This document shows, one piece after another, positions 8,501 through 52,355 of a stretch of DNA of 64,000 nucleotides; positions within the stretch are counted from its first letter, which is position 1, and every line of letters begins with the position of its first letter. A model generated the notes under the pieces. That model saw only the letters and a program-made list of their open reading frames with translations, was not told the origin of the DNA and did not search any database. The stretch comes from Pecten maximus (lineage: Eukaryota). The position numbers and the translations under genes are program-made. The DNA lies in contig NC_047016.1 in the NCBI RefSeq assembly GCF_902652985.1, forward strand, positions 21,824,001-21,888,000. The letters run 5' to 3'.

Positions 8501-11500
8501 AGAATTCTACCTAAAATACCTGCAAAGGTTAAAACAAGTTTTAATTCAAAGACGGCTAGGTCTAAATAGCCACATCATTGTTTTACAAGGCTAAATAAAG
8601 GGAGGTCATTCCTACTCTAACTGTTGACATAGTAGACAACGTTCGCTTTATTTATTAGAATGAAAAGCTTTTCGAGAAATTCCGCCTCTCAAGAAACAAG
8701 TAAATACCAGCAAGTAACTATTCAGATAGATATACTAGATAGTAGATAAATTGTCTAATAAAAGGTTTGATGTGATGACAGCGCTTTTGTTGCAAATGCG
8801 TTGTGTAATTTGGTTCATTTTCCCCACAAATTCGTCCACAATTTGGGGCAGCTGGAAGCAATGACACTATCGTTGCTATTTACCCTACCAAAGATAAAAT
8901 TTAATATTTCAATAGCATTATAAGATATATGACTGTTGTTTAACGAACAATATAGCGGAAAACTGATGATGTTTACCTTCGACAGAATATGTTGCACTCA
9001 CTTGATACTCCGGATACAGTAAATATAAGGGCCACATCAGTGGATGATAAACCTCTATTCTTTGCCAACTCAGGAATCATTACATGTGGTACAAAGTAAG
9101 CCAAAGCTGTGCAAAAACCCGATACGGCAAATATAAGGAAAGCCTTCGTTTTAAGTACTTTAGTCACTGCTGCTCGGAGTGGTGTATGATCTATGGTATC
9201 AACATTCTGGTGATTTCCACGTGGTTCTGCGATATGAATAATTACATGAATAATACTATAGTTGCTTTTCTCATTAGTTATGCAAGACATGTGCTTTGTT
9301 AACTTTGGACATCTCAAATACAGAAATGGATGAGTGTTGCAGATTAGAAACTATAAGTCTATCGAAAATACTATTGCAATAGTTAATGAACACCTAGAAT
9401 CATAACATATTCATAATAGTGCAAAGAAAGGCAACACCGGTTGTACCTATATTCCTAAGCAAAACATTGAACATCTACATCTAACCATTAGCAAAGACAT
9501 TGCCAATCAGCTGTTAGTACCATGCATTTGATGTTTTTGAAATAGATATTAAGTTAAATTAGACAGTCAGACTTTGGAAATAGTTCGTTAGAAATACTAA
9601 CCACCACTTGTTTGGACGTTGCCAATAATGGCTCCACAGACGAGTCCTTGTATGCCTATACCGGCCAGCAGGAGGAAGGTCTGTCGCCAGCCATACTCCT
9701 CAAGCCACACGGTAGTGAGCCAGGGTATTGCAATATTTCCACACCCAGATCCGGACGAGCCTATCGCTATCGCCACAGAACGACGTTTATCAAATGTTAG
9801 ATTCACCGTCACGGTTGCCACCAGATGAGCCATACCAAAGCCAACACCTTTTTCAGCAAAAACATAATGAAATCGATTTTAAAACTATTGCTTAAAGTTT
9901 AGTGGTCTTTTGTATACCAACAGGAGACTGTGACAAAATCTAACAATAGGTAGAATCGCAGTGGTGAAAGAATGGTGCGAAAGACTAAAAAACAAATATA
10001 AGCACTTTGTAAGTACAATTGTTGATTGGTTGAAAAATTGGTTGAAAAATTGGTTCGAAATTCATAAATAGTATTTTACTAATGTATAGGCCACTGTCAA
10101 GGTCAGCACGTTCACAAATGTAATAACACTAGAAAGATATTACGACCAGGAACACACGTATCAAACATGAAAGTCTTATCTTATATGATAAATATATTAT
10201 AAATATACTATAAATATACTATAAATATACTATAAATCCTGGCGCACTCAAATTTTAGCGCAAAATCAAATAAAAACAGATCAGCGGATTGATGGATTAG
10301 CGTACCAACAATGATTGCCATAGAAACCAATGTAGATACACTACGGTTAGCGTACCAACAATGATTGTCATTAAAACCAATGTAGATACACTACGGTTAG
10401 CGTACCAACAATTATTGCAATATAAACCAATGTAGATACACTACGGTTAGCGTACCAACAATGATTGCAATATAAACCAATGTAGATACACTACGGTTAG
10501 CGTACCAACAATGATTGCAATATAAACCAATGTAGATACACTACGGTTAGCGTACCAACAATGATTGCCATAGAAACCAATGTAGATACATTACGGTTAG
10601 CGTACCAACAATGATTGCCATAGAAACCAATGTAGATACACTACGGTTAGCGTACCAACAATGATTGCAATATAAACCAATGTAGATACACTACGGTTAG
10701 CATACCAACAATGACTGCCATAGAAACCAATGTAGATACACTACGGTTAGCGTACCAACAATGATTGCAATATAAACCACTGTAGATCAACCACAATTGG
10801 CGCAATTATATTTTAGCGGAATGCTTCCAGTGCGAAAAACGCTAAAATATGTACGTTTACCGTACTGTGGCCAAGATTAAAGTAGGTCAAAGGTCACAGT
10901 AAATGTCAGCAAGTTCGCAAGGAACACAAGGAACAGACATGTGAATTAACTAAGCTTTATACTCATTTTAAATATTGACACAACACTGTTTTCTAAAATA
11001 TTATATAGCATTACTTACCTGTAATGACGCCATAGGTGAGGAACAACCAATATAGGGAGGGGGCAAATGTGCTCGCGACCATACCCACACCTATCAGGGT
11101 CGATCCTGTCATAGCTACCACACGACAACCAAACCGCTTCTCTAGTATACCGGCTGCAGGACCTGACAAGACAATTCAAGCAGTTAAACGCCTTCGGATC
11201 TGTTGTTTCTATATAGATAATACACTTTAATTTTGATAAATCTGTGAACAATGATAATTGTTGCACTTAAAAAAGTAGAATATATATAAAAATATAATAA
11301 AATAAAAAGTCAAACACAGATCTGCTGTCTCCCTAGTACTTTCGCGGCTACATTGTGCCGCTCTTCAGGGGATTATGAATTTTATTCGGTACATCATTTT
11401 ATGACGTCATAGTTTGATGACGTCATAATAGTAGGGTACATAATTTATAAAACACTTATTTGTCCAGTTTACAAGGGTTGAGACCAACTATATGATACGG

Positions 11501-13893: not shown

Positions 13894-15018
13894 CTTTTAT
13901 GTAGCTGTTGGAGAAAATATGGAGACAACTCTGTGGTACAATGTATATATATTGTATACTAACACAGGTTACACAGTAAGGTCATCTGTCACGGTGTACC
14001 AACCTTTTGTAATATACATGTAAGCTGTCCTCAACGAATCAACGGGGCTATCAGTAATTATACGAAGACCCCTGCAGCGCCCGTGTTACATTGGCAAAGC
14101 TGTATTTATTTGAGCGAGAATACCTCTGTTCGACATAAATACCTCCGCTCCTATGCATCTGACATGTGTTATGTATATCGCGTACAAGACATTCTTTACA
14201 TTTTTGCAGCTGGTTTTATCCAAGTACCAAAATCATTGATTTGTGTTTAAAAGTGAGGATATGTGTAAATAGTCATGTAATATGATCACTGTAATAAGAA
14301 TCCAAATAGAATACAAAACTTAAAATGAAAAGCAAAGGAAATGAAGATGCTGATTTAAATTAACGTGATATGACAAAATATTTTGACCCCATCACTGCGT
14401 TCGCTTCACAACGGATATGACATGTAATTAACTTCGTAACAGTGGTCGTCTCCCACATCCAACATTTCATATTGGCCAGTCTCTGACCTTTGACCACTGA
14501 CTACTTTTCCTTTTCTCATAGGTGTCGTTTGTCATTTAAAAAAAGCAATACTACCACGTTTCTGTTTCTGAATTTGCTATCGATTAACATTGGCGGTATT
14601 GAGTGAGACGGTTGTCGTCAAGAAGAGATAATAACAAGAGGCCCATGGGGTCTGTATCGCTCACCTGGTTGGATTAGACCAAATGTCAAAATAATGTTCA
14701 TGTTCAATTCGTTTTATTTGTCAATGTCAAACAATGCTATATATGGTTATTGTGTAGGGATCCCAACTGCTTTAAAGAAATGACGAACTCCAGACTCTCT
14801 AAGGGTCTGAAAGACCTCAAGAATTGATTTTAGAACATCCATTCATAACTTTATGACTAGCAGCGATTTAAAGGAATTACCTCTATTTCCCCTATGGGGC
14901 ACTGCTCCTTTGGCCCCTCGGGAGTCAGAGTCACCATTTATGCAAAATCTAATCCCCTTCCCTCAATGATAATTCTGACCAGATTGGGTATAAATCCATT
15001 CAAAACGTTATGACTAGT

Positions 15019-15310
15019 AGTAGTACAAAAGTAAGGTTTCTGGGCCAGGGTCACCCGGTGCACTCCCCTATATAATCCTTACCACCTCCCGGGCACCTCC
15101 CTAGTGGCACCCCCTTGACAGGGGGGTACCGATGACGTCACAGGTAGAGGGTTATCCGGTGCACTATAAAAGGGGTCACGTCACTCAGGGGGTACAGATG
15201 ATGCAAGAGAGGTCACGCCCCATTCGTCAGGGGGAACCGATGACGTCATGAGTTGAGGGGATATAGGTGACGAGTTTTACTGACAGTTCTATATTTAGAG
15301 CGATTGCATC
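15019..15310 (+). repeat. Left terminal inverted repeat of the Polinton-like element
   Basis: Reverse complement of ~24446-24738 with scattered mismatches. Contains TGACGTCA motifs at 15133 and 15241. Confidence 0.9.
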
Positions 15311-16065
15311 ATGCTTAGAAATAGCTGGTTTTCAGCCAGTCAAGTTCATTTGGGACATTCTATGATACACAAAGTAAACAAAAAACAAAAGACGATACAT
15401 ATCTTATACAACATTTATGATTATCTCCGTAGCGAACGATTGAATATGGCTATGTAGTAAATGAATTTCAATAGGTTAGGTATGATTGGTTTTACCTAGA
15501 ACAAACATTCTGCAGTATGATGCTGAATATTACAGACACTATGTAAGATCAGAAATATCTACAGCTTTTCCTAATTAAATCGGAACCTTCTAAGGCGAAT
15601 ATGATGATATGAAACAAGTGTTAAACCACACATCCGTTTATATGAATATTATGTAGAAATACTGAAGCTAGCGTACACTACCTACCATTATTTATACTTG
15701 TGTCTAATCCCATTTGTGTTTTGACAAATAAAATACGTTTAAATCAAAATCACTATGTATTCACACAGGAAGATATGTGTAAACAAAGTACACAAGAGTT
15801 TTAGTACGGTGCAACGAAACAGAAGTAGCTAGTTATGTGAACCCCTCGGGCCTAGAATACACGTAGTTTTAACGAATATCGACGACAAACCTCCACAATT
15901 CAAGAACTTCCAGCATTAATAGAATCCAATATCGATAGCTAAATAATCAACTTCAGTCTGCTTGTAATGCAAATAGCGGCCTGTGTATACAAACACGATC
16001 GCATGACCTACTTTCAAATTTTACATTCGCTTTACGTGTATAAGATTATACACCTAAAATTGGTG

Positions 16066-16176
16066 GCCCGCTTAGCCGTGCGGTCTAGGTAGGGAAGCTT
16101 TGTATACTTACATACGGTATACGGTGAACGCCGCTAGTTCGACTCCCGTTCATAGCAGATACAAAAAAAAAAAAAA
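16066..16176 (+). ncRNA. tRNA-like Pol III unit (A box/B box plus A-tail) inside the Polinton-like element
   Basis: tagccgtgcggtctag (A-box-like), agttcgactccc (B-box-like), internal gtatac..gtatac stem, then A14. It does not form a clean tRNA cloverleaf. Confidence 0.45.
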
Positions 16177-16493
16177 TATTTTCAGTGTTTGATAGACTCG
16201 GCAGCTATGAAAAACACGTCTGATCACTTCAAAATCAACACAAAAAGTGAAAAAATAAATTACCAAAAAATCAAATAGCCAATCAAATTACCCGATTACT
16301 CTTGAAGGTGTCGGAGGGTATAAATACAAGTGCGAAATCACAAAAAAATCATTCTTAGGCTGCCACTTGGAGGAGTAAGACAGAAGAAAGTAATACAACA
16401 AATACAAGACACTGAAATAGTACACTGCTTACGGAACGAAAAGGTAAGTTTCAGTCCAATTATACAATTTGTAGGTTTATGATAATGTAACGT

Positions 16494-16970
16494 CTGAGGT
16501 GTTTGTCACACATGAATTGAGTGTACTGGGTTAGGGCGATGTCACAAGTCCACAACATGTCCCCGCGATATCCAGGAACATCTTTCCGACCAATAATTCA
16601 TGTGGGCCCATCGGGTGATGCTCCGTTTCTGGTGACAGAAGCGTTGATGTTCTTCGAAAGAACACCATAGGACTCTGTCCTTTAATCAGACATATACAAG
16701 ATTTTAGTTGCTATGTGGTTTCGATTTATACTTCTCACATATTTGTAAAACTGAGGTGTTTGTCACACATGAATTGAGTGTACTGGGTTAGGGCGATGTC
16801 ACAAGTCCACAACGGAAAGAGGGCGTTATAAAGTGACATGTCCCCGCGATATCCAGGAACATCTTTCCGACCAATAATTCATGTGGGCCCATCGGGTGAT
16901 GCTCCGTTTCTGGTGACAGAAGCGTTGATGTTCTTCGTACGAACACCATAGGACTCTGTCCTTTAGTCAG
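16494..16970 (+). repeat. Direct duplication (~195 and ~220 bp) in the Polinton 5' region
   Basis: ctgaggtgtttgtcacacatg...ggactctgtccttta occurs at ~16494-16688 and ~16751-16970. The second copy has a ~25-bp insertion. Confidence 0.9.
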
Positions 16971-17203
16971 TTAGCATTTCTCAGCTTCTAAAACACATCT
17001 GTATGCTTCAAAATCTATGATACATCTGAGATAAAAACACTAACCATATTTCTCAACATTTGTATTAACCAATCAAATGAGAGCAATGATGTCATTAATA
17101 AGAAAGGGTTTAAATACAGGAGTTATACCGATAAAATTTCATTCTGTAGCAGACACCTAGAGGACAGCACATCGCTTAATTTGTTCTTCCTATTGCAGAA
17201 ACT

Positions 17204-20200
17204 ATGGAAAAAAAGGACAGCTATCGATCAAAGTGCTACTCCGGCTAAGAAGGGGAAATTTTCTTGCCCACATTGTGATAAATCCTTTGAACACAAAAAG
17301 TCTCTCACGAGACATGTTGCACAACATGGAGATATCAAATGGAAATGTGGAGTTTGTAACAAAGAGTTTGCGAGAAAAGATCGACTGACGAGAGAGACAT
17401 GAGAAGGTTCATGGAAAACCACTACATTTATGTTGCGGAAAATCGTTCTGGAGGGCTGATAAATACCGTGAACATTTAAAAGCGCACAACAGAAGTCAAC
17501 ACGGGGGAGCATTGGAAATAGCCGAACACGAAAACAAAGAGAATGTCCAACCGCCAAAGGATCAAGAAGTTAAGCGTAACACTGACAGATTAAATGCAGA
17601 GATAGAAAACAACTCGGCAAACCCGACCATACAAGTTAATCAGCCAACGGATAATGACGAATGCCCTGAGGAAGCACTTGGTGGATCCTTTAAAGTGGTC
17701 ACTATTCCGGCAGAGGGTAAAGCCAAATTAGACGTCACAACATCCCTTCACCAACACTACGACACCATAAAGAAGAAAATAGAGAGTGCAGTTATCCAGG
17801 GGGGTGTCAAATGGTACCTATCGATCCAAGTCCAATTTTCAAAGCCGAAGGGAGAGACCGTGGAAAGCGTTACACCTCATTTTCGTGGAAAGTGTCAAAT
17901 CACTCTGAAATCTATTGACATTGACGAACACATGCGGGAATCGATACGAAAAATCCAGAATTCGTTCACAGAGTATCAACGACAGGGTAGCAACTGGACA
18001 TTAGACAAGGTGCTCCAAATACAGATTCATTTTGCCCGATACAAGCCTCTCAAAGGGTCCAGTTACATACCACTACCGATCAAGCTTAGATCTAAGCATG
18101 CTATTATCAACATTCAAAACAAAGACAAAAAATGTTTCATGTGGTCAGTATTGGTTGCTTTGCACCCAAGGAAAAATCATCCAGAGCGTGCTTCGAAATA
18201 CATAGATTACCAAAGCGAACTCAATTTCACGGGTATTTCCTTCCCTGTCAAAGTTGCTGATGTCATTAAGTTCGAGGCAGGAAACAAGATCAGCATCAAC
18301 GTCTTAGGATACGAAAAAGGTTCGCTTTTCCCAATACATGTGACAAAGCAAAGGTTTGACCGACACGTAGATTTACTACTCATATCTGACGGACGAAAAT
18401 CTCACTACTGCTGGATCAAGAATATAGACCGGCTTCTGAGTGATCAGTACACATGTAAAAACCGCTATTTTCACTGCATGTATTGCATGCAAGGGTTCAC
18501 CAAGGAACGGATTCTCAACGACCATATCCCCTACTGTCGTGAGCACGGGACACAGAAAATTAAATTACCAACAGAAGAGGATAAATGGTTGTTCTATAAG
18601 GACGTGAGAAAACAATTAAAGGTGCCTTACATGATATATGCAGACTTCGAGTCATTTCAAGTTCCCATACATGGATGCGAGGTTGACCCGGAAAAATCAC
18701 ACACTGAGAAGACCACGCGACATATTCCTTCTAGTTTCGCCTACAAAGTAGTAGGTGTGACAAAGGAAACCTCCAAAAATCCCGTGGTTTATAGAGGACC
18801 AGGTGTGACTGAGAAATTTGTAGAATGTATGCTGAGGGGGCAGGAGGATATAGAACAAAGATTCAAAAATGTCGAACCGTTGGTCATGACAGGAAGTGAT
18901 TGGCACTCATTCAAAACAGCAGTAGACTGCCATATTTGTGGGAAGGAATTAGGGGACGACAGAGTGAAAGATCATTGTCACGTGGCGGGAGCATTCAGGG
19001 GAGCAGCTCACAATGACTGTAACATAAACTATAAGTTTACGGGACGTATTCCGGTCGTCTTCCACAATTTGAGAGGTTACGATTCCCATCTCATAATGCA
19101 AGCAATTGGAAAGATGTCTGATAAAGAAATAAAATGTATACCAAATAATATGGAGAAGTACATTTCTTTCTCCATGGGTTGTATGGACTTTATCGATAGT
19201 TTCCAGTTTATGGGAACGTCACTGGAAAAACTTATCGGGAATTCATCTGTGGAGGGTAAGGACAAGTTCTCACACATGACGCAACATTTTGGCGATGAGA
19301 AAATCGAACTCCTCCTTAAAAAAACAAGTGTACCCATACGACTACTTCGATGGTCCCCACAGGTTTCGAGAGACTAGTCTCCCTCCAAAGGAAGCTTTTC
19401 GTAGCAGTCTGACGGGAGAGGATGTATCGGAAGAAAAGTATCACCACGCTTGCAAAGTCTGGAAGGATTTCAGCATACAGAATCTTGGTGAATATTCGGA
19501 CATATACGTCTTGACAGATGTACTAGGTCTGGCCGATGTATTCGAAAACTTTCGAAATCTATGTCTGGAATCATATGGCCTCGATGCAGCTCATTTTTAC
19601 ACTGCTCCAGGTCTTGCATGGCAAGCAGCTCTAAAAATGACAAATGTCAGACTCAAACCGCTTACTGACAGCGACCAGCACTTGTTCATTGAGGAAGGCT
19701 TGAGGGGAGGCATATCCATGATTAGTCACCGATTTGCTGAGGCTAACAATCCCTACGTCCTAGGATATGACCCAATGAAACCAACAGAATACATCACCTA
19801 CTTGGATGCAAATAATTTGTATGGCTGGGCCATGTCTCAATACCTGCCGACTCATGGCTTCGCCTGGCTTACCGATAATGAAAAGGACATGCTTGATATC
19901 ACGACAGTTACTGATGATGCGACACGTGGATATGTACTGGAAATGGATCTAGAATATCCTACAGAACTCCACGATCTACACAACGAATACCCACTAGCAC
20001 CCGAACGGGTAACCGTGGGAAAAGATGAACTGACTGACCACAGTAAAACCTTATGGCGGAAGCTGTCGCACTGTGGAAATCTACATGATGGTGAAAACCT
20101 TCACGATTGTTTGGATCATTATAACTCAGCACAAAAACTCGTTCCAAACCTTAGAAATAAGGAAAAGTATGTAGTACACTACAGAAACTTAAAACAATAC

Positions 20201-21143
20201 CTCTCACTCGGAATGAAACTCACAAAAGTCCAGAGTGTTAACCTTCGAGCAGGCGCCATGGTTGAAGACTTATATAGATTACAACACGGAAAAAAGGAAA
20301 CAATCTCGAAACAATTTCGAGAAAGATTTCTATAAATTAATGAACAACAGCGTGTTTGGCAAGACAATGGAGAACTTAAGAAAGAGAATGGACGTCAAGC
20401 TTGTAAACAGTGAGAAGAAAGCAATGAAACTTACATGCAAACCCATATTCCACGAGTTCAGAATTTTCTCTGACGATTTAATCGGTGTTCACATGCTTAA
20501 GGCAAAGTTGTTTTTGAATCGACCAATCTACGTCGGATTCAGCATTCTTGACATCTCAAAAACATTGATGTATGATTTTCATTATAATTACATCAAGCAG
20601 AAATTTTGATCTAATGCCCGTCTTCTCTTTACCGATACCGACAGTCTAGCATATACCATTCAGACAGATGACTTCTACCAACATATGTTAGAGGACAGTG
20701 ATTTATTCGATATATCAGAGTTCAGGAAAGACAATCCACTCTACAGTATTAAAAATAAGAACGTACTGGGCAAAATGAAAGATGAGACTCATGGCGATGC
20801 GATCCATGCCTTTGTTGGGCTGAAATCAAAGATGTATGCATATACATACAATACAATGGAAGATATTGGTGGTACAGAAGTGATAACACATGTGGAATCA
20901 AAGAAGGCAAAAGGTATCAAAAAGTATGTTATTGAAAACCACACTCGTTTTGAGCAGTACAAGGAATGTCTTCTTAAAAACAGAATTATCATGTCTCACA
21001 TGAATCAGATCAGAAGATTCAAGCACCAACTCTATAACATATCGATGACCAAAATAGGCCTGTCACCATTTGACGACAAGCGATATCTGCTAGACGATGG
21101 GATTACTAGCTACGCTTACGGTCATTGGAGGATACAAAATTAG
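17204..21143 (+). pseudogene. Protein-primed DNA polymerase B (Polinton type) with N-terminal C2H2 zinc fingers and an endonuclease VII-like insert; frameshifted
   Basis: ORF pieces 17181-17402, 17512-19377, 19289-20335, 20235-20609, 20685-21143. Motifs: YADFES (exo I), CHICG..DHCH..G.FRGAAHNDCN (endonuclease VII-like), [44 protein letters not shown] (just after the stop at 20607-20609), GKMKDE, KAKG, FDDKRY. About four frameshifts plus one stop. Confidence 0.92.
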
Positions 21144-21480
21144 GAGAGTGAACTATCCTAGAAAGGTCTCATTTCAGGACCCCGCTGAATGGAAAAAGGT
21201 GTACAATCGACACAGATCACCCGAGTACCATTGTGTGGGTGGTAGATGACTCTCAGTAGTGTAAATAAATCATATTGTCCATTTTAAAGTAGGCTCTATG
21301 TACAGGCAGACACAAGATGGGTCCCTGACTTGTGTACTGCCTTATTGACAGAGATTATAAATATCGATTGTTACAATGTGTCGAATTATATTTTTACCCA
21401 TAATGCACTGCCCGAAAGAGTATAAATAGACCTAAAGTCTGAAATTTTGTCATTTCATACCTGGACACCGAGGAGTAAAC

Positions 21481-22990
21481 ATGTATAAAGTTCAATGTTG
21501 TGACTGCCGAAGATGGTTTTCCAGAATAGATGTAATGAAAAGACATCAGAGAAACGTACATGGTTATCTATCAACACCACTTCAAAAAGACAGCCAGCCA
21601 GCGCCGCCGCCGCCGCCGCAGGAGGGCAGTCATGCGTATCCGCCGCCACAGGAGGGCAGTCATGCGTATCCGCCGCAGCCGCCGCCGGAGGGCAGTCAGC
21701 AGAAGCAGCGGGACTTTGTTTTTAAACATCCCTTTACTGCAAATGTATCGGGACCCACATCATGTGGAAAGACTTATTTTGTCAAGACTTTATTACAAAA
21801 TTGTTTGTCAAAGATATCGCCAGCTCCACAAAGGATTTTGTGGCTCTACAAACGCTGGCAACCTCTATATGATATCATCAGGTCAACGGTTGTACCAAAG
21901 GTGGAATTTATTCAGGGGATACCACTTGATTTAGATCAGGACTCGTTCATAAACTCTAGCATTAGAAACCTTGTAATACTTGACGACCTAATGTCTACAG
22001 CATTTAAGGATCCGGGGATCAATGAGTTGTTTACAGAAGGGAGTCATCACAGAAACCTGTCCATCGTTGCCATCAACCAAAATTTATATTATAACAAGGA
22101 CCCTACTCAGAGACGTAACTGTCATTACTTGGTTTTGTTTAACAATCCAGTGGATAAACAACAGGTCATGACTTTAGCCAGACAAATGTACCCTGAAAAT
22201 GTTCAACACCTGATGAGCCATTTCAAGGAAGCTACCAGGAAACCCTATGGATACCTTCTCGTCGATTTGAAACCCACTACACTTGAATCTCTGCGCTTGC
22301 GCAGTCATGTCTTCGCTCACGAACCTATAAAAGGGGACATAGAACAGACGTTCGATCATTTTGATAGCAGCAGTCGTAGTGAACGGACGTATTTCCGACA
22401 GCAACAAGAAAATCCTGAACATCCTCACCACTTTACCGAAGATATTCCACAGCAGCCCCGAGAATCAGACCAAATGTCTGCCTGTGACGATTGCGGTATC
22501 ATGTTCCAAAACATGCACGATTTACAGAGACACTTGAAAACCTGGTGTCCAGAAAATGATTCTAGGAAAAGGAAACGAGAATCAATAGAGGAAGAAGATG
22601 GGCCTCAGCCAAAAAGGTGGATCTCATATGAAGAGTCCGACGAGGAAAGTGGTGAAAGTGAAGAAAATGAAGTTGTCTGATGACGAAGCACAGAAAAAAG
22701 CGAACGAGAAGATGAAATTGTCTGACATGGAGCAATTTTACCACAATTATAAAGCCATTATCCAGTACATTCTTCAGCTACGAAATGGTATGATCCACGA
22801 AAAGATCATGGATGATGTCACTGAATTCATAGACGATGGATATGGGAGTCGTAAAGCAATCAAGATGGCACTTAAAAAGAATCGTCATGTTTTAGAAGAG
22901 TTGTGGGACCATGACTCCGAAGATGATGAATCGAACGTTGACTCCGAGGATGAGGAATCGGACGATGACTCCGAAGCAGATGAAAACTGA
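21481..22990 (+). CDS. Polinton A32/FtsK-like packaging ATPase with C2H2-like motifs and acidic tail (ORF 21481-22680, probably continuing by frameshift into 22598-22990)
   Basis: Walker A GPTSCGKT, Walker B LVILDDLM, LFTEGSHHRNLS, KPYGYLLVD. N-terminal CCDCRRWF..MKRHQRNVH, Pro-rich PPPQEGSHAY repeats, C-terminal CDDCG..LQRH motif. Confidence 0.85.
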
Positions 22991-23049
22991 AATATATAAG
23001 GTTTGTTGTTCAAATCTTCATTTCAACGTCTAGCACTTGACGAGGAAAG

Positions 23050-24158
23050 ATGCCTTCCTGGGAGGATTATCTAAGAGATATTTATTTTAACCCTGCAAAT
23101 GCGGGGAGTTTCTCCGGACCCGACAAATTGTATAGATATGTACGGAAAGACGGAAAATACGTCATCAGCAAATACAAAATAAGAAAATGGTTACAACGCC
23201 AAGAGCCATACAGTCTTCAGGGATCGCTCCGACGTCCATTCAAGCGAAACAAAATCATAGTGACGGGTATCGACGACCAATGGTCGGCTGATCTCATGGA
23301 CATGGTCAAATTCAAGAGTGAAAACGATGGTTATTCCTATGTACTCGTTGTCATAGATGTCTTCTCTAAGTATTTGTGGATGAGACCTCTAAAAGACAAG
23401 AAAGGTGCATCTGTAGCAAAAGCGCTACAGGATATTTTATACGAGGGGAGACAGCCGGGCCGGATACGTACCGATAAGGGCCAAGAATTTCGATCGAAAG
23501 AGGTGAATACACTCATGGATGGATATGGCATACAGCATTTATATGCCCAAAACGACACCAAAGCCGCCGTAGCCGAGCGTGTCATCAAAACCATAAAATC
23601 TAGACTGTACAGGTATTTCACGCACAGAAGAAACTACGAATACGTTAAGAAATTACAAACGTTTGCCGACAGCTATAATCAAACGTATCACCGGACGATC
23701 GGTATGCCCCCCACAAATGTGTCTAAAGATAAGGAGACGTCTATCTGGTGGAGAATGTATTGGCCGAAAAAACAACCAGTCTTGCCAAAAACGAAGAAGG
23801 TTCGTAAACCTTTCAAGTTCAAAGTTGGAGATAAAGTGAGGTTGTCCCATTTGAGAAACCTTTTCTCCCGAGAATATGACCAAAAATGGACGGGGAGATA
23901 TTCACCATTTCTCAAAAGATACTTCGTGGAGGCTTACCAGTGTATAGAGTTAAAGACTTTGATGGAGACGAGATCAAAGGAACCTTCTACCAGTCCGAAC
24001 TACAGAAAATAGATGTTAGGGACGATGATATGTGGAAGGTTGAGACCATTCTGAAAACCAGAGAAAAAGGTCGAAACAAAAAAAACTACGTGAAATGGCT
24101 ACACTGGCCGAAGAAATTCAACTCCTGGATACGTGCGTCTGATGTAACCGATTTGTAG
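23050..24158 (+). pseudogene. Retroviral-like (rve, DDE) integrase with C-terminal chromodomain; one frameshift near 23895
   Basis: WSADLMD, VIDVFSKY, IRTDKGQEF, AERVIKTIK, YNQTYHRTIGMPP, FKVGDKVR. The frameshifted tail reads GTFYQSELQ..VETILK..YVKWLHWPKKFNSWI (chromodomain). Confidence 0.9.
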
Positions 24159-24445
24159 GAGAGTGAACTACCCTAGAAAGGTCTAATATCAAGACCCCTT
24201 GTTATGGGAAAGAGCGTACATATACACAGATCGCTCAAGTACAATAACATGGGTGGAAGATGGCTCTCGTTTATTTGTAAATATTCATTTGTCCATGATA
24301 GAGTAGGTTTTCTTTGTAAGGATGGATGTGGGATGGCTCTCCGACCTACATTCATTCCATCGCGACGGGGAAAATAAAATGTTGTACATAAAAAGTCTTA
24401 TCTTATATTATGATCTAGTTTGACCTAAAAGTTATTTCAAAATAA

Positions 24446-24738
24446 GATACAACCGCCCTAAATATAGAACTGTCAGTAAAACTCGTCACCTATATCCCCT
24501 CAGCTCATGACGTCATCGGTTCCCCCCTGACGAATGGGGCGTGACCTCTCTTGCATCATCTGTACCCCTGAGTGACGTGACCCGTTTTATAGTGCACCGG
24601 ATAACCCTTCATATGTGACGTCATCGGTACCCCCCTGCCAAGGAGGGTGCCACTAGGGAGGTGCCAGGGAGGTGGTAAGGATTATATAGGGAAGTACACC
24701 GGGTGACCCTGGCCCAGAAACCTTACTTTTGTACTACT
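24446..24738 (-). repeat. Right terminal inverted repeat of the Polinton-like element
   Basis: Reverse complement of 15019-15310. Confidence 0.9.
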
Positions 24739-27700
24739 ACTAGTAGCGATTTGAATGAATTAACTCTATTTCCCCTATGGGGCCCGCCCCTCAGGCCCCT
24801 GGGGGTCAGAGTCACCATTTATGCAAAATCTGTTCCCCTTCCCCCAATGATGTTTCTGACCAAATTGGGTTCAAATCCTTTGATAACTTTATGACAAGTA
24901 GCGATTTGAAGGAATTACCTCTATTTCCCCTATGGGGCCCGCCCCTTTGGCCCCTTGGGGGTCAGAGTCATCATTTATGCAAAAACTGTTCCCCTTCCCC
25001 CAATGATGTTTCTGACCAAATTGGGTTCAAATCCTTTCATAACTGTATGACAAGTAGCGATTTAAAGGAATTACCTCTATTTCCCCTATGGAGCCCCGCC
25101 CCTTTGGCCCCTTGGAGGTCAGAGTCACCATTTATGCCAAATCTGTTTCCCTTCCCTCAATGAAAATTCTGACCAAATTGGGTTCAAATCCTTTCATAAC
25201 TTTATGACAAGTAGCGATTTAAAGGAATTACCTCTATTTCCCCTATTGGGCCCCACCCATTTAGCCCCTCAGGGGTCAGAGTCACCATTTATGTAAAATC
25301 TGTTCCTCTTCCCCAATGATGTTTCTGACCAAATTTGGTTCAAATCCTTTCATAACTTTATGACAAGTAGCGATTTAAAGGAATAACCTCTATTTCCCCT
25401 ATGGAGCCCCGCCCCTTTGGCCCCTCGGGGGTCAGAGTCACCATTTATGCAAAATCTGTTCCCCTTCCCCCAATGATGTTTCTGACTAAATTGGGTTCAA
25501 ATCCTCTCATAACTTTATGACAAGTAGCGATTTAAAGGAATTGCCTCAATTTCCCCTATTGGGCCCCGCCCCTCAGGCCCCTTGGCGGTCAGAGTCACCA
25601 TTTATGCAAAATCTAATTCCCTTCTGCCAAGGGTGTTTCTGACCAAATTTGGTCAAAATCCAATAGGAACTTTTTGACATGTAGCGATTTGAAGGAATTA
25701 ACTCTATTTCCCCTATGGAGCCCCGCCCCTTTGGCCCCTCGGGGGTCAGAGTCACCATGTATGCAAAATCTGTTCCCTTCCCCCAATGATGTTTCTGACT
25801 AAATTGGGTTCAAATCCTTTCATAACTTTATGACAAGTAGCGATTTAAAGGAATTGCCTCAATTTCCCCTATTGGGCCCCGCCCCTCAGGTCCCTTGCGG
25901 GTCAGAGTCACCATTTATGCAAAATCTAATCCCCTTGTGCCAAGAATGTTTCTGACCAAATTTGGTCAAAATCCAATAGGAACTTTTTGCCATGTAGCGA
26001 TTTGAAGGAATTAACTCTATTTCCCCTATGGAGCCCCGCCCCTTTGGCCCCTCGGGGGTCAGAGTCACCATGTATGCAAAATCTGTTCCCCTTCCCCCAA
26101 TGATGTTTCTGACTAAATTGGGTTCAAATCCATTCATAACTTGAAGACTAGTAGCGATTTAAAGGAATTACCTCTATTTCCCCTATTGGGCCCCGCCCCT
26201 TTGGCCCCTCGGGGGTCTGAGTCACCATTGATGCAAAATCTGTTCCTCTTATCACAAGAATGTTTCTGACCAAATTGGGTTCATATCCATTCATAACTTT
26301 ATGACTAGTAGCGATCTAAAGGAATTGCCTCAATTTCCCCTATTGGGCCCCGCCCTCAGGCCCCTTGGGGTCAGTCACCATTGATGCAAAATCTGATCCC
26401 CTTCCCCAAAGAATGATTCTGACCAAATTGAGTTCAAATCCATTCATAACTTTATGACTAGTAGCGGTTTAAAGGAATTAACACTATTTCCCCTATGGGC
26501 CCCGCCCCTTTGGCCCCTCGGGGGTCAGAGTCACCATTTATGCAAAATCTGTTCCCCTCCCCCAATGATGTTTCTGACCAAATTGGGTTCAAATCCATTC
26601 AAAACTTTATGACTAGTAGCGATTTAAAGGAATTACCACTATTTCCCCTATGGGCCCCGCCCCTTTGGCCCCTCGGGGGTCAGAGTCATCATTTATGCAA
26701 AAACTGTTCCCCTTCCCTAATAGATGTTTCTAAATAAATTGGGTTCAAATCCATTCATAACTTTATCACTAATGGTGATTTAAAGGAATTACCTCTATTT
26801 CCCCTATGGAGCCCCGCCCCTTTGGCCCCTCGGGGGTCAGAGTCACCATTTATGCAAAATCTGTTCCCCTTCCCCCAATGATGTTTCTGACTAAATTTGG
26901 TTCAAATCCTTTCATAACTTTATGACAAGTAGCGATTTAAAGGAATTGCCTCAATTTCCCCTATTGGGCCCCGCCCCTCAGGCCCCTTGGGGGTCAGTGT
27001 CACCATTTATGCAAAATCTAATTCCCTTCTGCCAAGGATGTTTCTGACTAAATTTGGTCAAAATCCATTAAAACCTTTATGACTAGTAGCGATTTAAAGG
27101 AATTGCCTCAATTTCCCCTATTGGGCCCCGCCCCTCAGGCCCCTTGGGGGTCAGTTTCACCATTTATGCAAAATCTAATCCCCTTCTGCCAAGGATATTT
27201 CTGACCAAATTTGGTCAAAATCCATTAAAACCTTTATGACTAGTAGCGATTTAAAGGAATACCTCTATTTCCCCTATGGAGCCCCGCCCCTTTGGCCCCT
27301 CGGGGGTCAGAGTCACCATGTATGCAAAATCTGTTCCCCTTCCCCCAATGATGTTTCTGACTAAATTGGGTTCAAATCCTTTCATAACTTTATGACAAGT
27401 AGCGATTTAAAGGAATTGCCTCAATTTCCCCTATTGGGCCCCGCCCCTCAGGTCCCTTGCGGGTCAGAGTCACCATTTATGCAAAATCTAATCCCCTTCT
27501 GCCAAGGATGTTTCTGACCAAATTTGGTCAAAATCCAATAGGAACTTTTTGCCATGTAGCGATTTGAAGGAATTAACTCTATTTCCCCTATGGAGCCCCG
27601 CCCCTTTGGCCCCTCGGGGGTCAGAGTCACCATGTATGCAAAATCTGTTCCCTTCCCCCCAATGATGTTTCTGACTAAATTGGGTTCAAATCCTTTCATA

Positions 27701-28500
27701 ACTTTATGACAAGTAGCGATTTAAAGGAATTGCCTCAATTTCCCCTATTGAGCCCCGCCCCTCAGGTCCCTTGCGGGTCAGAGTCACCATTTATGCAAAA
27801 TCTAATCCCCTTCTGCCAAGGATGTTTCTGACCAAATTTGGTCAAAATCCAATTGGAACTTTTTGACTAGTAGCGATTTGAAGGAATTAACTCTATTTCC
27901 CCTATGGAGCCCCGCCCCTTTGGCCCCTTGGGGGTCAGAGTCACCATCTATGCAAAATCTGTTTCCATTTCACCAATGGTGTTTCTGACTAAATTGGGTT
28001 CAAATCCATTCATAACTTGAAGACTAGTAGCGATTTAAAGGAATTACCTCTATTTCCCCTATTGGGCCCCGCCCCTTTGGCCCATCGGGGGTCTGAGTCA
28101 CCATTGATGCAAAATCTGTTCCTCTTCTCACAAGAATGTTTCTGACCAAATTGGGTTCATATCCATTCATAACTTTATGACAAGTAGCGATCTAAAGGAA
28201 TTGCCTCAATTTCCCCTATTGGGCCCCGCCCTCAGGCCCCTTGGGGGTCAGTCACCATTGATGCAAAATCTGATCCCCTTCCCAAAAGAATGATTCTGAC
28301 CAAATTGGGTTCAAATCCATTCATAACTTGATGACTAGTAGCCATTTAAAGGAATTGCCTCAATTTCCCCTATTGGGCCCCGCCCCTCAGGCCCCTTGGG
28401 GGTCAGAGTCACCATTTATGCCAAATCTGCTCCCCTTCTGCCAAGGATATTTCTGACCAAAGGTCGATATCCAATAGGAACTTTTTGACAAGTAGCGATT
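24739..28500. repeat. ~167-bp satellite array (~22 monomers; about one more monomer lies left of the Polinton at ~14850-15018)
   Basis: Monomer actagtagcgatttaaaggaattacctctatttcccctatgggccccgcccctttggcccctcgggggtcagagtcaccatttatgcaaaatctg...ctgaccaaattgggttcaaatcc..tcataactttatg, with two recurrent sub-variants. Confidence 0.95.
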
Positions 28501-31500
28501 TGAAGCAAATGTTGACGGACGACGGACGACGGACGGACGACGGACGCCGCACCATGGCATAAGCTCACCGGACCTTCGGTCCAGGTGAGCTAAAAAGCTT
28601 TGGTTGGAGTCGTATAAAATAGAATTGGTTGATGGTAACATACGCACAGACGCAAGATACCTCATTGACGTATGAACAACCCCATTGATTCCCAATGTGC
28701 AGTGAACCCTGATAGTCACGAATCATGAAAAGTCTCAATTGTATGATAAAACCCTGTCCCTAACCGTAGTGAACGTATGCCCCAAGAGTGAATACATTAA
28801 CACTATCTAATAGTTCCACTTACCTTCATGGCGAGTTTATATTCCAAATACAAAAATACAAAATTCCATTTTGTAAGCTCGTGTCTTTTCAAAATTAGAA
28901 AACTAATAACTCGACTAAATAAAAATAAAATTTTGAACAGGTACACAGCTTGTCAATGTGTTTATAAATCTGTACATGTGTACACTGTACCGGCTGTCGG
29001 CATGTTCCAGTGACTTCACTAGCTAAAATTCACTGTAGTGGAATACACAGGTAGGTTCTGGTATACGTAATGGAGTGAGTTGTAAGCAAGTATAGGTTTG
29101 CTTTGTATGACTATGCCTCGGTCAGTTTGTGGTGTGTTTACTTGACCGATACAAGTATAGGTTATAGTATTCATTACACCCTCGTCCGGCTCGCTCGAAT
29201 ATACAGAAGAAGCGAGTGAAAAAAATGTACTCACCTTGTCAAATTTTTGTGTATTATTTACCTGTGCCTATTTGAGTATTCGTCAGTACCAACGAATCTT
29301 CCATTAATATATTAGCATAAATGTTTTACAAACGTGTCAGCTATTAGGGCATTCTATTTTAGTTTTGTAATAATCGAATCTTCAAATGTTTCGATCACAT
29401 TCTCTCTTTTCACCCCTGAAATATGCCATGGCAAAATCGAAGGTTCCCGAAAAGTAATTTGATCTGACTACAGCCGTTTCAGGAGAAACAAAAAACCCTG
29501 ACCAATCATAATCCACGATATCGTCTGTCTGCTTTGCAACTTTTCAAAAAAACATGGTGACGACCTTGCTGGATTGTCGCTCACGAAGGACAGCTTACCA
29601 GAGAAAAAAAGGTAGAGTGATCTTAGGTACATATGTACGTTCGTCTTTGTGTTTGACTTCCCTATCACAAACAATAGACTACGTTACTTCAGAAACGACA
29701 GTTTATCACATTATATAATATACATTCCACACAGCCTACCTCGGATAACGTTTTATTTACCGGCTTCAAAAACAGATCGACGAAACTTCAAATGTTTTTG
29801 TTTAGAATCAGCGTGGTCACCGAGAAGTCAGACTGAGAATTTATCAAAACAAACTACAACGATGCCTGTTATTTTAACCTTATAAAGCCGAAGTACGAGC
29901 TCTCTTATTCAGAGGGATGTGTTACATTACTATTTGTCAATGGGATGCTGTTGCATCATATTATATACCAAAAGTCTGTTTTCAGATTATACGTGTGAAA
30001 TATTAAAACTGCACCTGTTATAAGATATCAAAATCAGAAAATGGTCTCGGACGATGTTTTTATAATATTCTAGATATGTCAAGAGTACTGTCTGAATCGT
30101 TTATATAAATAATCATGGGATGCGTTAGTAATTTCCTGGTACATACATTGATTTGATTTTAATTTTCCCCGGATACCATAATTTATACCTTAACTTGAAT
30201 CAATTTATGGTGCCAAAAGCACGTTTCAAATCAACAAAGCAATAATATAGCCTTTTGTAATTGTTTAAGGATTTAGTAAACATAACATGTAGTGCGAAAA
30301 CAGCATCAATAGTGCTTAAACCAGGGCGAAACCCAAACTGGGTATCTGAAATCACATAACTGGTTTCTGACCATTTTATGTCACGGGTATTAAAGATAGA
30401 TGTAAGTAGTTTTGTTATACAACTTAAAAGACTAATGCTCCTGTTAAATGATTAATGACGTCACCAAAAAGATGTACAATGCCGCACGATTGTCTGTGTG
30501 GAAAAACCGTCCGAGTCGAAATTCGTCTGACCTTTATAGAAACAAAATAAGTTTTGACCTTTATTCGCATTAATATGGGTTATTTGATAAACAGAATCTA
30601 AACTCATGTGTAATACAGAATACGAATTTTTTAAAACTTGTATGTCATCTGTCTAAGGACTGAAATGTATATGAAATTATTGTATTCGTTTTATAAATTC
30701 TATATAACAGCCAGTCATGTAAGATCCTCTGTTTAACGTTACTAAAAATCGTCATAACTATTGTAATTTCTATTAACTAGAAAATCAAACTAATTTTATT
30801 TCCGTAGTCACAGCATTGAGTAGAACTGGTATCCATCGCCTGTAACTCTGACACACATCAAAGATGGTGACCTCTGTTGTCCTAGAGATATCATTATTGT
30901 TTTCGTTTCAATCTTAAAAACAAAAATACTTGTGTAAATTATTTAACAAAATAAAACTTACCTTTCGCACAAACAACCACAAGTACAATTGACCAACAAT
31001 AAAGATTCAGTATTTAATTCAATTCCGCTATTTTTGGATTTGTCTGCACGGCACTTCCAGTTGCTAACAGTTCGTGCGTTATCAAAGCTTCGTGATTTAA
31101 TACTAGTCAGTGATGAAATACTGGTTTCTAACCTGTAGGAGCATCACTGTTATGATATATGGTGAGAGGTTCCCGTCACTTTGATTCTACGTTATCATAG
31201 GACCGAGGAGGAAATCTGTACATTGTGTATTATCATTTTATACAAATTTAATCACATAATCGTTGGGTTATCCAAAGAATTCGCCTGTGTAATATTTTTG
31301 CATATGTCACTTGTATATATTACCCTGAACCTGCAACACTCAGAAATCGATTGTGATGTCATTATGTACATAATGACGTTACGTTAGGATTTGACACTGA
31401 CGCAAAAAAAAAAAAACAAAAAAAAAAACGGCTGCGTTCGTCTGATTTAGCCCTCCACAATTAGAAATGAATGTTTATTACTTCTGTAATCTCATTTTAT

Positions 31501-32239
31501 ATCATTTTTAATGAAACTGATCTCGAATCTTTAATTTTATTCGACACAGTCTGCAAAAATAATAATTTAAAAAAAAAAAACCGTTATTGATTTTGATTTC
31601 TTGTTTTGCTAAATCTTCACTTAAGCAATGATACATGTAGGAATATCTTCTTGTTTCAGGCTGTTAGGAAATAAAACCGCTGTATCAGCCAATTAAAAGC
31701 GACGCTACAGATGGTGACGTCATATTTTACATTAATTATTGACCAAATGAAAACGCTTGTTATAGGCAAGATTAAATTGTATACACTTTGAAACACTTAG
31801 AAAATTTAACTTCACGGGACATGTTTTCACTACAGCAAATTATAACAAATCATACAAACAATAACTTGTGTGGAATGTTTTTTAATGCAGATACAGTAAA
31901 GATGAGTATCAGATATCCTGTTTCTATAATTCTGTCAAATCTATGGACATTCATGTACTTACAATGTGCTTGTACACGTATACTTTTTAACATTTTGATA
32001 TCGATATGGGGTATTGACTCGTAGGTAAAATACACGTTTATGTAGACATGTACTATTGTACTTGTCACTTCCAGCTACTCAAAGGACTGTATTCCATACA
32101 TTTACTGTGACCAGTATACAATGTATATACGGACCACTGATTAGAATGACCATGTTCGGTTGCAGGATGAAAAAAAAGAAACTAATCTTTAATGTGAAAT
32201 GGTGAATCACAGATACGACACCTGAAATGAACTTATCAG

Positions 32240-34060
32240 AGCTACCGAGAGACTGTCCCACACAGCTACCGAGAGACTGTCCCACAGAGCTACCGAGAGG
32301 CTGTCTCACAGAGCTACAGAGAGGCTGTCTCATAGAGCTATCGAGAGGCTGTCCCACAGAGCTACCGAGAGCCTGTCCCATAGAGCTATCGAGAGGCTGT
32401 CTCACAGAGTTACAGAGAGGCTGTCTCACAAAGTCACCGAGAGGCTGTCTCACAGAGCTACAGAGAGGCTGTCCCACACAGCTACAGAGAGGCTGTCTCA
32501 CAGAGCTACCGAGAGCCTGTCCCATAGAGCTATCGAGAGGCTGTCTCACAGAGTTACAGAGAGGCTGTCTCACAAAGTCACCGAGAGGCTGTCTCACAGA
32601 GCTACCGAGAGGCTGTCTCACACAGCTACAGAGAGGCTGTCTCACAGAGCTACAGAGAGGCTGTCTCACACAGCTACAGAGAGGCTGTCCCACAGAGCTA
32701 CAGAGAGGCTGTCTCACACAGCTACCGAGAGGCTGTCTCACACAGCTACAGAGAGGCTGTCCCACAGAGCTACCGAGAGGCTGTCTCACAGAGTCACCGA
32801 GAGGCTGTCTCACACAGCTACAGAGAGGCTGTCCCACAGAGCTACAGAGAGGCTGTCTCACACAGCTATCGAGAGGCTGTCTCACACAGCTACAGAGAGG
32901 CTGTCCCACAGAGCTACAGAGAGGCTGTCTCACAGAGCTACCGAGAGGCTGTCTCACAGAGTCACCGAGAGGCTGTCTCACAAAGTCACCGAGAGGCTGT
33001 CTCACACAGCTACCGAGAGGCTGTCTCACACAGCTACAGAGAGGCTGTCCCACAGAGCTACCGAGAGGCTGTCTCACAGAGTCACCGAGAGGCTGTCTCA
33101 CAGAGCTACAGAGAGGCTGTCCCACAGAGCTATCGAGAGGCTATCTCACAGAGTCACCGAGAGGCTGTCTCACAGAGTCACCGAGAGGCTGTCCCACAGA
33201 GCTATTGAGAGGCTGTCCCACAGAGCTACCGAGAGGCTGTCTCACAGAGCTACAGAGAGGCTGTCCCACAGAGCTATCGAGAGGCTATCTCACAGAGTCA
33301 CCGAGAGGCTGTCCCACAGAGCTATTGAGAGGCTGTCCCACAGAGTCACCGAGAGGCTGTCTCACAGAGCTACAGAGAGGCTGTCTCGCACAGCTACAGA
33401 GAGGCTGTCCCACAGAGCTATCGAGAGGCTATCTCACAGAGTCACCGAGAGGCTGTCTCACAGAGTCACCGAGAGGCTGTCTCACAGAGCTACAGAGAGG
33501 CTGTCTCGCACAGCTACAGAGAGGCTGTCCCACAGAGCTACCGAGAGGCTGTCCCACAGATCTACCGAGAGGCTGTCTCATAGAGCTATCGAGAGGCTGT
33601 CTCACAGAGCTACCGAGAGGCTGTCTCACAGAGCTACAGAGAGGTTGTCTCACACAGCTACCGAGAGGCTGTCTCACAGAGCTACCGAGAGCCTGTCCCA
33701 CAGAGCTATCGAGAGGCTGTCTCACACAGCTACAGAGAGGCTGTCTCACAGAGCTACCGAGAGGCTGTCCCACAGAGCTACAGAGAGGCTGTCTCACAGA
33801 GCTACAGAGAGGCTGTCTCACAGAGCTATCGAGAGGCTGTCCCACAGAGCTATCGAGAGGCTGTCCCACAGAGCTATCGAGAGGCTGTCTCACAGAGCTA
33901 CCGAGAGGCTGTCTCACAGAGCTACAGAGAGGCTGTCTCACAGAGCTACAGAGAGGCTGTCTCACAGAGCTATCGAGAGGCTGTCCCACAGAGCTATCGA
34001 GAGGCTGTCCCACAGAGATATCGAGAGGCTGTCCCACAGAGCTACCGAGGGCTGTCTCAC
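32240..34060. repeat. 24-bp minisatellite, ~76 copies
   Basis: Unit cacagagctaccgagaggctgtct with recurring variants. It produces spurious ORFs on both strands. Confidence 0.97.
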
Positions 34061-52260: not shown

Positions 52261-52355
52261 TATATATATATATATATCACACACAATTTGGAATCCAGAA
52301 AAATATGTTTGATTTGTTATGAAATAATGGTAGTTTTAACATTTCTAAATCTAAT

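Follow-up and report, generated by a model that had tools for sequence, protein, structure and literature searches.

Introduction

Conservation of a packaging ATPase is a standard argument that Polintons form virions. Polintons that lack capsid genes are known already, and 9 of 13 tabulated ones lack the ATPase too, Polinton-1_TV included (PMC4028283); passages of PMC4405056 describe capsid-less Polintons as pure transposons. Two ATPase-only cases, P_Pd1.1 from Platynereis dumerilii (10,777 bp) and P_Gi1.2 from Glomus intraradices (11,019 bp), appear in Table S1 of PMC4028283. Passages of PMC4405056 also present the yeast cytoplasmic linear plasmids as Polinton derivatives in which pPolB is retained and the capsid is gone, and Polintons without PolB are reported in parts of 10.1101/2025.02.07.637071. 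In the literature we found neither a family-level account of capsid-less Polintons that keep the ATPase nor a published three-gene bivalve Polinton family, of which a prior description may exist.

Here we analyze an element in a 64,000-nucleotide stretch of Pecten maximus DNA, the window. This element belongs to a Polinton family with three genes and no capsid, family 1, that has inserted recently, and the copy in the window has decayed.

Results

The element spans 9,720 bp (15019-24738 of the window), with AGTAGT...ACTACT as its outermost letters. An earlier note on this DNA had reported terminal inverted repeats (TIRs) and a target-site duplication, and both were confirmed. The left TIR (~308 bp, + strand, 15019-15326, starting AGTAGT) and the right TIR (- strand, 24430-24738, ending ACTACT) pair over 308 bp with 289/307 identity. 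The unstranded duplication ACTAGT stands at 15013-15018 and again at 24739-24744, where a 157-bp tandem array follows; the insertion point is the first unit of this array. Polinton TIRs range from 100 to 1500 bp and target duplications from 5 to 8 bp (10.1101/2023.08.22.554363), and family 1 falls within both ranges.

All internal features lie on the + strand. As the note had claimed, the gene content is limited to ZnF-pPolB, ATPase and integrase-chromo, and the copy is decayed, with all three genes broken; a six-frame profile search of the element returned no major capsid, penton-like, protease or PW gene. The ZnF-pPolB gene (ATG at 17204, to 21143) encodes Cys/His motifs of OTU-like type together with an insert resembling Endonuclease VII; in the window copy its frame shifts near 17210, 17393, 19325 and 20235, and a stop codon lies at 20607. 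Its Pfam match in this copy falls under the cut-off (DNA_pol_B_2, PF03175, E 1.4e-3), and the Exo and Pol A/B/C motifs are present in copy L007. The OTU-like label for the N-terminal domain follows 10.1101/2024.03.18.585575; Atlas returned no family for this region, which is putatively assigned from its Cys/His motifs, and a PDB sequence search with PolB gave only zinc fingers among the matches listed. The D..C and HY motifs are retained in family 1 and in L056. A long A32/FtsK-type ATPase gene (21481-22990) encodes a zinc finger, a low-complexity linker, a P-loop core, a second zinc finger and a helical domain (Pox_A32, PF04665, E 9e-6); the protein is 520-580 aa long with the domain order ZnF-ATPase-ZnF-helical, and in the window copy the gene is broken at 22677, where ~80 bp are missing relative to other copies. 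The integrase (23050-24158; rve, PF00665, E 1.5e-13) ends in a C-terminal chromodomain (E 6e-5) and has a frame change near 23890.

The note had assigned each gene its own promoter-like module. This held for PolB (17109-17163), ATPase (21421-21473) and integrase (22993-23045); there is also a fourth module (16319-16373; TATA, TCATT, CAC..GAGG), which has no ORF downstream. A pattern derived from these four modules themselves matched nowhere else in the window (0 hits over 54 kb) and in 0 of 300 simulations. The matched 3' elements that the note placed after PolB and integrase were recovered as element A (21141-21293), conserved with a weak predicted structure, and element B (24156-24307), 76% identical to A.

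Conserved elements are also present in the left arm, which is non-coding. Pol III-type A (16074-83) and B (16137-45) boxes lie within 16066-16150; across left arms the B box is found in 15/15 and the A box in 14/15, with a spacer that differs among copies. This region is not a tRNA, and ARAGORN found 0 tRNA genes in 13 loci. Further on, a splice-donor-like AAAG/GTAAGT (16440-16449, ~50 nt 5' of structured unit 1) is present letter for letter in 12/15 left arms, from which splicing may be inferred. Among the sequencing contigs none joins the donor by splicing to the start of PolB, and one reads through the donor without splicing; that these runs are RNA is a presumption, and in X1 the single-copy flank has no coverage.

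Two copies of a 220-nt structured unit follow, one at 16494-16689 (24 nt missing in the window copy) and a full-length one at 16751-16970. From covariation, unit 2 is predicted to fold into a multi-branch RNA that includes a GNRA hairpin and a pseudoknot between a loop and an internal loop. Most double changes stem from two diverged copies plus a single subfamily; in the pseudoknot helix there are 0. Single-sequence folding is ordinary (z -1.4). Rfam, with its ribozyme, snoRNA, IRES and VA RNA families, gave 0 matches to the whole element at E<=1, units and 3' elements included, and, with the limit at E<=5, none to the unit of three copies; assignment as a twister, hairpin, group I, RNase P or 7SK-like RNA was abandoned on this ground. 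A covariance model applied to 86 sources matched family-1 loci exclusively, with none in the tested family-2, full-Polinton or foreign loci; copies were counted by DNA searches; an 18-nt unit motif had 0 matches in viral_contigs. We found no structured RNA in Polintons in the literature, where a prior description may exist. The duplicated structure is a candidate for a new class of RNA, carried by a DNA transposon, and the units may be RNAs within an intron that would run from promoter 1 to the PolB start.

Complete elements were compared within the Pecten maximus genome. All 12 gene-bearing TIR-to-TIR copies measure 6,883-11,326 bp, TIR length across copies is ~260-370 bp, and a perfect 6-bp duplication, at a different site each time, flanks 12 of the 14 copies bounded by TIRs. 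Copies L006 and L007 agree at 9885/9889 aligned bases (99.96%), have different duplications and keep all three frames open. Copies of 15-20 kb with the same TIRs and capsid genes, which the note had named as evidence against its reading, were absent among 53 TIR matches (40/67 candidates scored). Family 2 (8-9 kb) has the same three genes with other ends and another gene order; two of its TIR matches near capsid genes proved on inspection to lie outside those elements.

The same genome also carries full Polintons of 16.4-16.6 kb, whose 440-aa protein groups with DJR-like clusters and whose PolB is 48-49% identical to that of family 1. Of the 66 long-ATPase loci, not one has any of the 82 detected capsid loci within 20 kb. 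Among 134 of 145 integrase matches, tallied with second fragments omitted, 62 adjoin a capsid gene, 48 a long ATPase, 0 both and 24 neither. Major capsid, penton-like and protease profiles recovered the genes in 4/4 held-out controls; they found 0 in 27 compact stretches (best E 1.5) and 0 in 43 further stretches (best E 0.044, 7 bits).

Purifying selection acts on each of the three genes, with dN/dS of 0.05-0.13 for the ATPase core, 0.12-0.14 for its C-terminal part, and 0.08-0.16 for both PolB and integrase (17/21 comparisons unsaturated, every pair using one common reference copy); the subfamilies also appear recombined. The ATPase model matches the A32, B204 and IVa2 packaging ATPases. The long-ATPase clade spans bivalves and has capsid-bearing relatives among its members; on this basis, loss of the capsid block is likely. 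Within it, Pinctada and Mizuhopecten ATPases nest among Pecten maximus copies (support 97/83), a placement that hints at movement between hosts. Tree support for a single origin is mixed (ATPase 91/87, PolB 44), and the integrase tree requires two changes (AU p 0.068). Rows whose best unbroken match was under the length cut were excluded from these trees (integrase 5/38, PolB 15/34, ATPase L034 and L051).

Discussion

We consider it highly probable that family 1 is a stable self-transposing lineage. Given such a lineage, the chance that its ATPase serves borrowed capsids seems to us somewhat better than even, and we narrowly favor the full account in which a three-gene capsid-less Polinton family copies and inserts itself while its ATPase loads DNA into the capsids of other Polintons. 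By analogy with established Polinton biology, family 1 would be replicated by its own protein-primed polymerase from the TIR ends, and the OTU-like domain of that polymerase would release the terminal protein, so that the lost adenain would be dispensable. Its own integrase likely makes the 6-bp target duplications at insertion. The packaging ATPase was likely kept for loading element DNA into capsids of co-resident Polintons, and the compact elements may travel in capsids from related elements of the same genome. Docking on these capsids is not assured, because the ATPases of the capsid-bearing elements examined there are just 29-44% identical to that of family 1 and only 5-7 terminal bases are common to both. 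As for origin, the penton-capsid-protease block was probably lost and transposition then continued. The note had offered a deletion derivative or a minimal lineage as alternatives; the lineage stands, and the two are not mutually exclusive, since an origin by loss is likely.

The reading less favored in the note, that of a full Polinton internally deleted once and dead on arrival, has next to no probability, even though no gene of the window copy is intact and many full elements show POL-ATP-INT in their left half. Against it stand the many independent insertions that share one layout, the young copies that hardly differ, and the purifying selection, and within the scored candidates it is refuted by the 12 TIR-bounded gene-bearing copies and by the separation of long-ATPase from capsid loci. 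A capsid that escaped recognition, either in the helical domain at the C-terminus of the ATPase or in a spliced left-arm gene, is very improbable. That domain is kept in 115 of the 120 homologues listed, across bivalves, but its model is a zinc finger plus ~110 helical residues, and the long ATPase with its extra domains also occurs on contigs L142 and L074, which have a normal capsid gene; these domains are thus no adaptation to satellite life, because capsid-bearing relatives have them too. Searches with the domain reached at best a VIA Z of 6.6 (43 residues); Foldseek matched nothing at E<=0.001, and the PW profile did not match (probability 0.1%). These searches are too weak to speak against a retroviral-type, CA-like fold. 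In unbroken copies the left arm has no 130-aa ORF and is only 40-70% conserved outside motifs, and no spare ORF could encode a capsid.

A purely intracellular self-synthesizing transposon, with no particle and an ATPase re-used for, e.g., DNA translocation in replication, excision or integration, is possible but on balance doubtful. It would suit the zinc-finger and helical domains kept across the ATPase clade, the gene's own promoter module, the lack of any capsid-bearing element of this clade among those found in the Pecten maximus genome, and the term pure transposons used in passages of PMC4405056. However, published capsid-less elements mostly lack the ATPase too (9/13, PMC4028283), the core retains the packaging-ATPase fold and motifs, and the Pinctada and Mizuhopecten placement hints at host-to-host movement. 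Quite unlikely, in our view, is a two-part system in which family 1 supplies replication and family C capsids. Family C invites this reading with paired TIRs flanking integrase, penton-like, capsid, protease, ATPase and PW genes, no PolB match in any locus tested, and ends AGTAGTATAGG against AGTAGTAC/TAAAA in family 1; yet only 7 terminal bases are common, and the family-1 promoter module is absent from family C. PolB-less Polintons are moreover known from parts of 10.1101/2025.02.07.637071, and the family C capsid is 68-69% identical to those of L220, L222 and L223; two of these three encode a different type of PolB and could act as helpers for family C. A broader version, which we hold to be unlikely, has bivalve Polintons split into a replication half (family 1, whose gene-free arm would supply a new class of pseudoknotted RNA) and a capsid half (family C), as a two-part integrating DNA virus or true Polinton satellite whose 220-nt RNA would be a ribozyme or packaging RNA.

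Surveys that demand major capsid, minor capsid and ATPase together, as described in passages of PMC11131425, would overlook this lineage entirely. An ATPase under strong selection in capsid-less families would either work in trans, making family 1 a Polinton satellite, or have a second job. Some phage satellites keep their own packaging subunit and take helper capsids; their likeness to family 1 lies in the proposed logic and implies no homology. Non-autonomous N-type Polinton derivatives lack working PolB and integrase, whereas family 1 has open frames and dN/dS of 0.08-0.16 in these genes. The yeast cytoplasmic linear plasmids, unlike family 1, do not integrate and have lost the entire morphogenetic module. 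P_Pd1.1 and P_Gi1.2, single table rows in PMC4028283, resemble family 1 in their size of ~11 kb and in having the ATPase and no major capsid, penton or protease. Trichomonas Polinton-1_TV, as portrayed in passages of PMC4405056, shares pPolB, rve integrase, TIRs and the lack of capsid genes; family 1 differs in retaining an ATPase under selection and in being half the size. Family 1 (6.9-11.3 kb in 12/12 gene-bearing copies) is also smaller than the usual 13-25 kb Polinton, and its structured unit and promoter module were not found in the full Polintons tested. Compared with the polintoviruses and adintoviruses (Orthopolintovirales), the 16.4-16.6 kb Polintons of the Pecten maximus genome among them, it is without hexon, penton, adenain and PW, and its ATPase is lengthened by zinc-finger and helical domains; what the two share is a ZnF-pPolB with OTU-like Cys/His motifs, integrase-chromo, a packaging ATPase, AG..CT ends and a 6-bp duplication.

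A dispersed family of compact Polintons

The element at 15019-24738 of the window has the two terminal inverted repeats (TIRs) and the target duplication claimed for it in the earlier note (repeats of ~308 bp, 289/307 identical, with ends AGTAGT..ACTACT; duplication of 6 bp), and the copy is decayed, as that note held, with all three of its protein genes broken. Its insertion site lies within a 157-bp tandem array, and with this internal 157-bp array and its ACGG-rich tail the host site (14630-28600) looks like a non-autonomous element, which we take to resemble bivalve pearl/CvA-type elements. Other tandem arrays occupy 10297-10787 (period 50 bp), 32237-34061 (24 bp), 42418-43124 (36 bp) and 51623-52261 (34/70 bp). 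Each gene is indeed preceded by its own promoter-like module, TATA-TCATT-CAC..GAGG, which occurs four times on the + strand, the fourth at 16319 with no ORF downstream, and never in the remaining 54 kb of the window or in 300 simulated sequences; because the search pattern was written from the element's own modules, this result demonstrates recurrence, not function.

Family 1, the capsid-less Polintons (ZnF-pPolB, long ATPase, integrase-chromo) that include this element, has a common structure, has spread in the genome and has been under selection. At least 53 matches to its TIR occur in the genome of 918 Mb, with scores for 40 of the 67 candidates. Among 14 TIR-to-TIR copies examined, 12 bear genes and measure 6,883-11,326 bp, the other two 0.8-0.9 kb; perfect 6-bp duplications, all different from one another, flank 12 of the 14. 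The three copies above 10 kb contain insertions, one with RNase H-like sequence. Two copies, L006 and L007, are identical at 9885/9889 aligned bases, differ in target site and keep all three frames open, so the three-gene form inserted very recently. With every gene-bearing copy examined in this size range, and no 15-20 kb same-TIR copy with capsid genes among the TIR matches scored, the stable design is favored over the unique deletion weighed in the earlier note; a one-off deletion of a full Polinton is hardly credible. The family-1 TIR also occurs on MITE-like derivatives of 0.8-0.9 kb, and some copies are palindromic, with integrase-ATPase at each end (L039, L040, L010, L164).

Pairs of open frames give dN/dS of 0.08-0.16 for both PolB and integrase; in the ATPase the values are 0.05-0.13 for the core (dS up to 1.8) and 0.12-0.14 for the C-terminal part. 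Of the 21 comparisons, four are saturated and all include L007. Because only capsid-less family-1 copies make up the unsaturated pairs, purifying selection likely acted after loss of the capsid. PolB retains its polymerase motifs and the Cys and His of a putative OTU-like domain, which in a published model frees the terminal protein (10.1101/2024.03.18.585575); replication could thus continue without adenain. Copying would be protein-primed from the TIR ends, and insertion would be carried out by the element's own integrase.

A structured unit in the non-coding arm

Left arms carry a Pol III-type B box (15/15) and A box (14/15) with a variable spacer, and a donor-like AAAG/GTAAGT downstream of promoter 1 (12/15); a pyrimidine-rich YAG lies 5 nt upstream of the PolB start in most copies retaining it. 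Between donor-like motif and YAG stands a 220-nt unit, single or in two copies (43 matches genome-wide). Conservation per 50 bp is mostly 85-100% in the unit and drops to 40-70% in adjoining DNA. A 66-pair structure worked out on the window copy holds in 94% of the cells when 20 sequences are compared. Double-sided changes occur at 19 pairs against 5.9 in shuffles (0/500 as high), and the excess of G-U over A-C cells (112 vs 22) points to the + strand. Kinship among sequences can, however, beat this shuffle, most changes stem from L158, L031 and one subfamily, the 7-bp pseudoknot is nearly invariant, and single-sequence folding is unremarkable (z -1.4). In the 3' elements the consensus fold is weaker, with double changes at 11 of its 27 pairs. 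In a second organism one contig agrees with the unit at 110/111 bases, while the PolB contig differs at 77/822. The likeliest reading of these sequences would be an RNA held in a putative intron of a spliced PolB leader.

At L016 and L017 (G000 C10:40,680,692-40,699,740), a 2,194-bp unit forms a head-to-tail array. The unit comprises the left TIR and entire non-coding arm, ending ~22 bp before the PolB start, and is 2188/2192 identical to L007. An LTR retrotransposon splits the first unit, and the array joint recurs in contigs of sequencing runs X1 and X2. The array could derive from self-integration or a circle.

Relatives and ancestry

A second compact family (family 2; L051, L053, L166, L168, L169-L172, L174, L175) has the same three genes, a length of 8-9 kb, 6-bp duplications and 41 TIR matches; it differs from family 1 in its ends, TGATGAAT not AG..CT, and its gene order, POL followed by converging INT-ATP. 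Its integrase is 42% identical to that of family 1, and the structured unit is absent from the loci tested. Long-ATPase homologues number 594; among the best 120, those that carry a name belong to Pecten, Mizuhopecten, Argopecten, Solemya, Pinctada, Mytilus, Ruditapes, Mya and Mercenaria, along with one labelled Sedimenticola MAG, probably DNA of a host, and 115 of these 120 have the C-terminal domain. A scallop is accordingly the probable host of the element.

In foreign contigs L142 and L074 the long ATPase lies downstream of a capsid gene, so the ancestor likely carried the capsid block. A branch with support 91/87 sets the compact ATPases apart, and both families' PolBs group with a capsid-bearing element of the same genome (94). 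The integrases separate, each grouping beside contigs of foreign origin (95, 100), and their union in a single clade is not rejected (p 0.068). The trees would accommodate a capsid block that may have been lost once, with gene exchange, or lost twice.

Several other arrangements were observed. At L034 (C12:21.78 Mb), where no TIR was found, the long ATPase, together with an integrase of 60% identity, adjoins another PolB type (PF03175, E 1e-20), which suggests polymerase exchange. In contigs of other organisms (L065, L068, L082, L088, L098) a spliceosomal-type intron appears to split the long ATPase within Walker A. Foreign contig L065:250-3957 has integrase and ATPase directly after a family-2 end, and L067:256-3310 has ATPase, integrase and, ~430 bp on, ACTACT; both lack the opposite end, and no capsid genes were found in 8 kb of L067. 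At L077:472-1971 a same-clade ATPase is fused in-frame with an adenain-like protease.

Retention of the packaging motor

Profiles for major capsid, penton-like, protease and PW proteins, built from Polintons, recovered held-out controls (4/4 for the first three, 3/4 for PW) but had no match in 27 compact stretches searched across all six frames and past stops, nor in 43 more, which upholds the claim that capsid and protease genes are missing. Genome-wide, with 96 of 204 capsid and 140 of 1304 integrase candidates scored, none of the 82 capsid loci was within 20 kb of any of the 66 loci with the long-ATPase C-terminal domain; 62 integrase matches adjoin a capsid gene, 48 a long ATPase and none both. 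The predicted ATPase model (pLDDT 77.6) contains a P-loop core, zinc fingers and helices, and no beta-sandwich was found in it. A capsid hidden in family 1 is very improbable.

Possible helpers reside in the same genome, which holds Polintons of 16.4-16.6 kb with all core genes, their PolB 48-49% identical to that of family 1. It also holds family C (L041/L042, L043/L044, L204-L207, L209, L210), multi-copy, TIR-bounded elements mostly of 6-10 kb (one of 15 kb with an insertion) that encode integrase, penton-like, capsid, protease, ATPase and PW proteins, show no PolB match, and have ends with 7 bases in common with those of family 1. A two-part partnership of family 1 with family C seems to us improbable. 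Further PolB-less capsid elements occur at C15:1.367 Mb and C5:5.556 Mb. The ATPase, conserved under selection, might have been kept for an intracellular role, a tentative reading that we find rather unlikely. Overall, we slightly incline to cross-packaging as the reason the motor was kept: family 1 would have retained it to be packaged by other elements' capsids.

Comparison with known systems

The available portions of 10.1101/2025.04.19.649669, PMC10294476, PMC8097293, PMC11131425, PMC11071296, 10.1101/2023.08.22.554363 and 10.64898/2026.10.13.758929 describe no family of this kind. PolB-less mobile polintons have been reported (10.1101/2025.02.07.637071), and the name Polinton is retained for capsid-less forms (PMC4405056); family 1 is a Polinton, not a polintovirus. 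In PMC4028283, including its Table S1, 13 of 72 Polintons lack the major capsid, nine of them also ATPase and protease, and two entries of ~11 kb, P_Pd1.1 and P_Gi1.2, have the same gene pattern as family 1. What is new here is the family-level evidence, the finding that an orphan packaging motor is under selection, the ATPase clade of bivalves and the structured unit.
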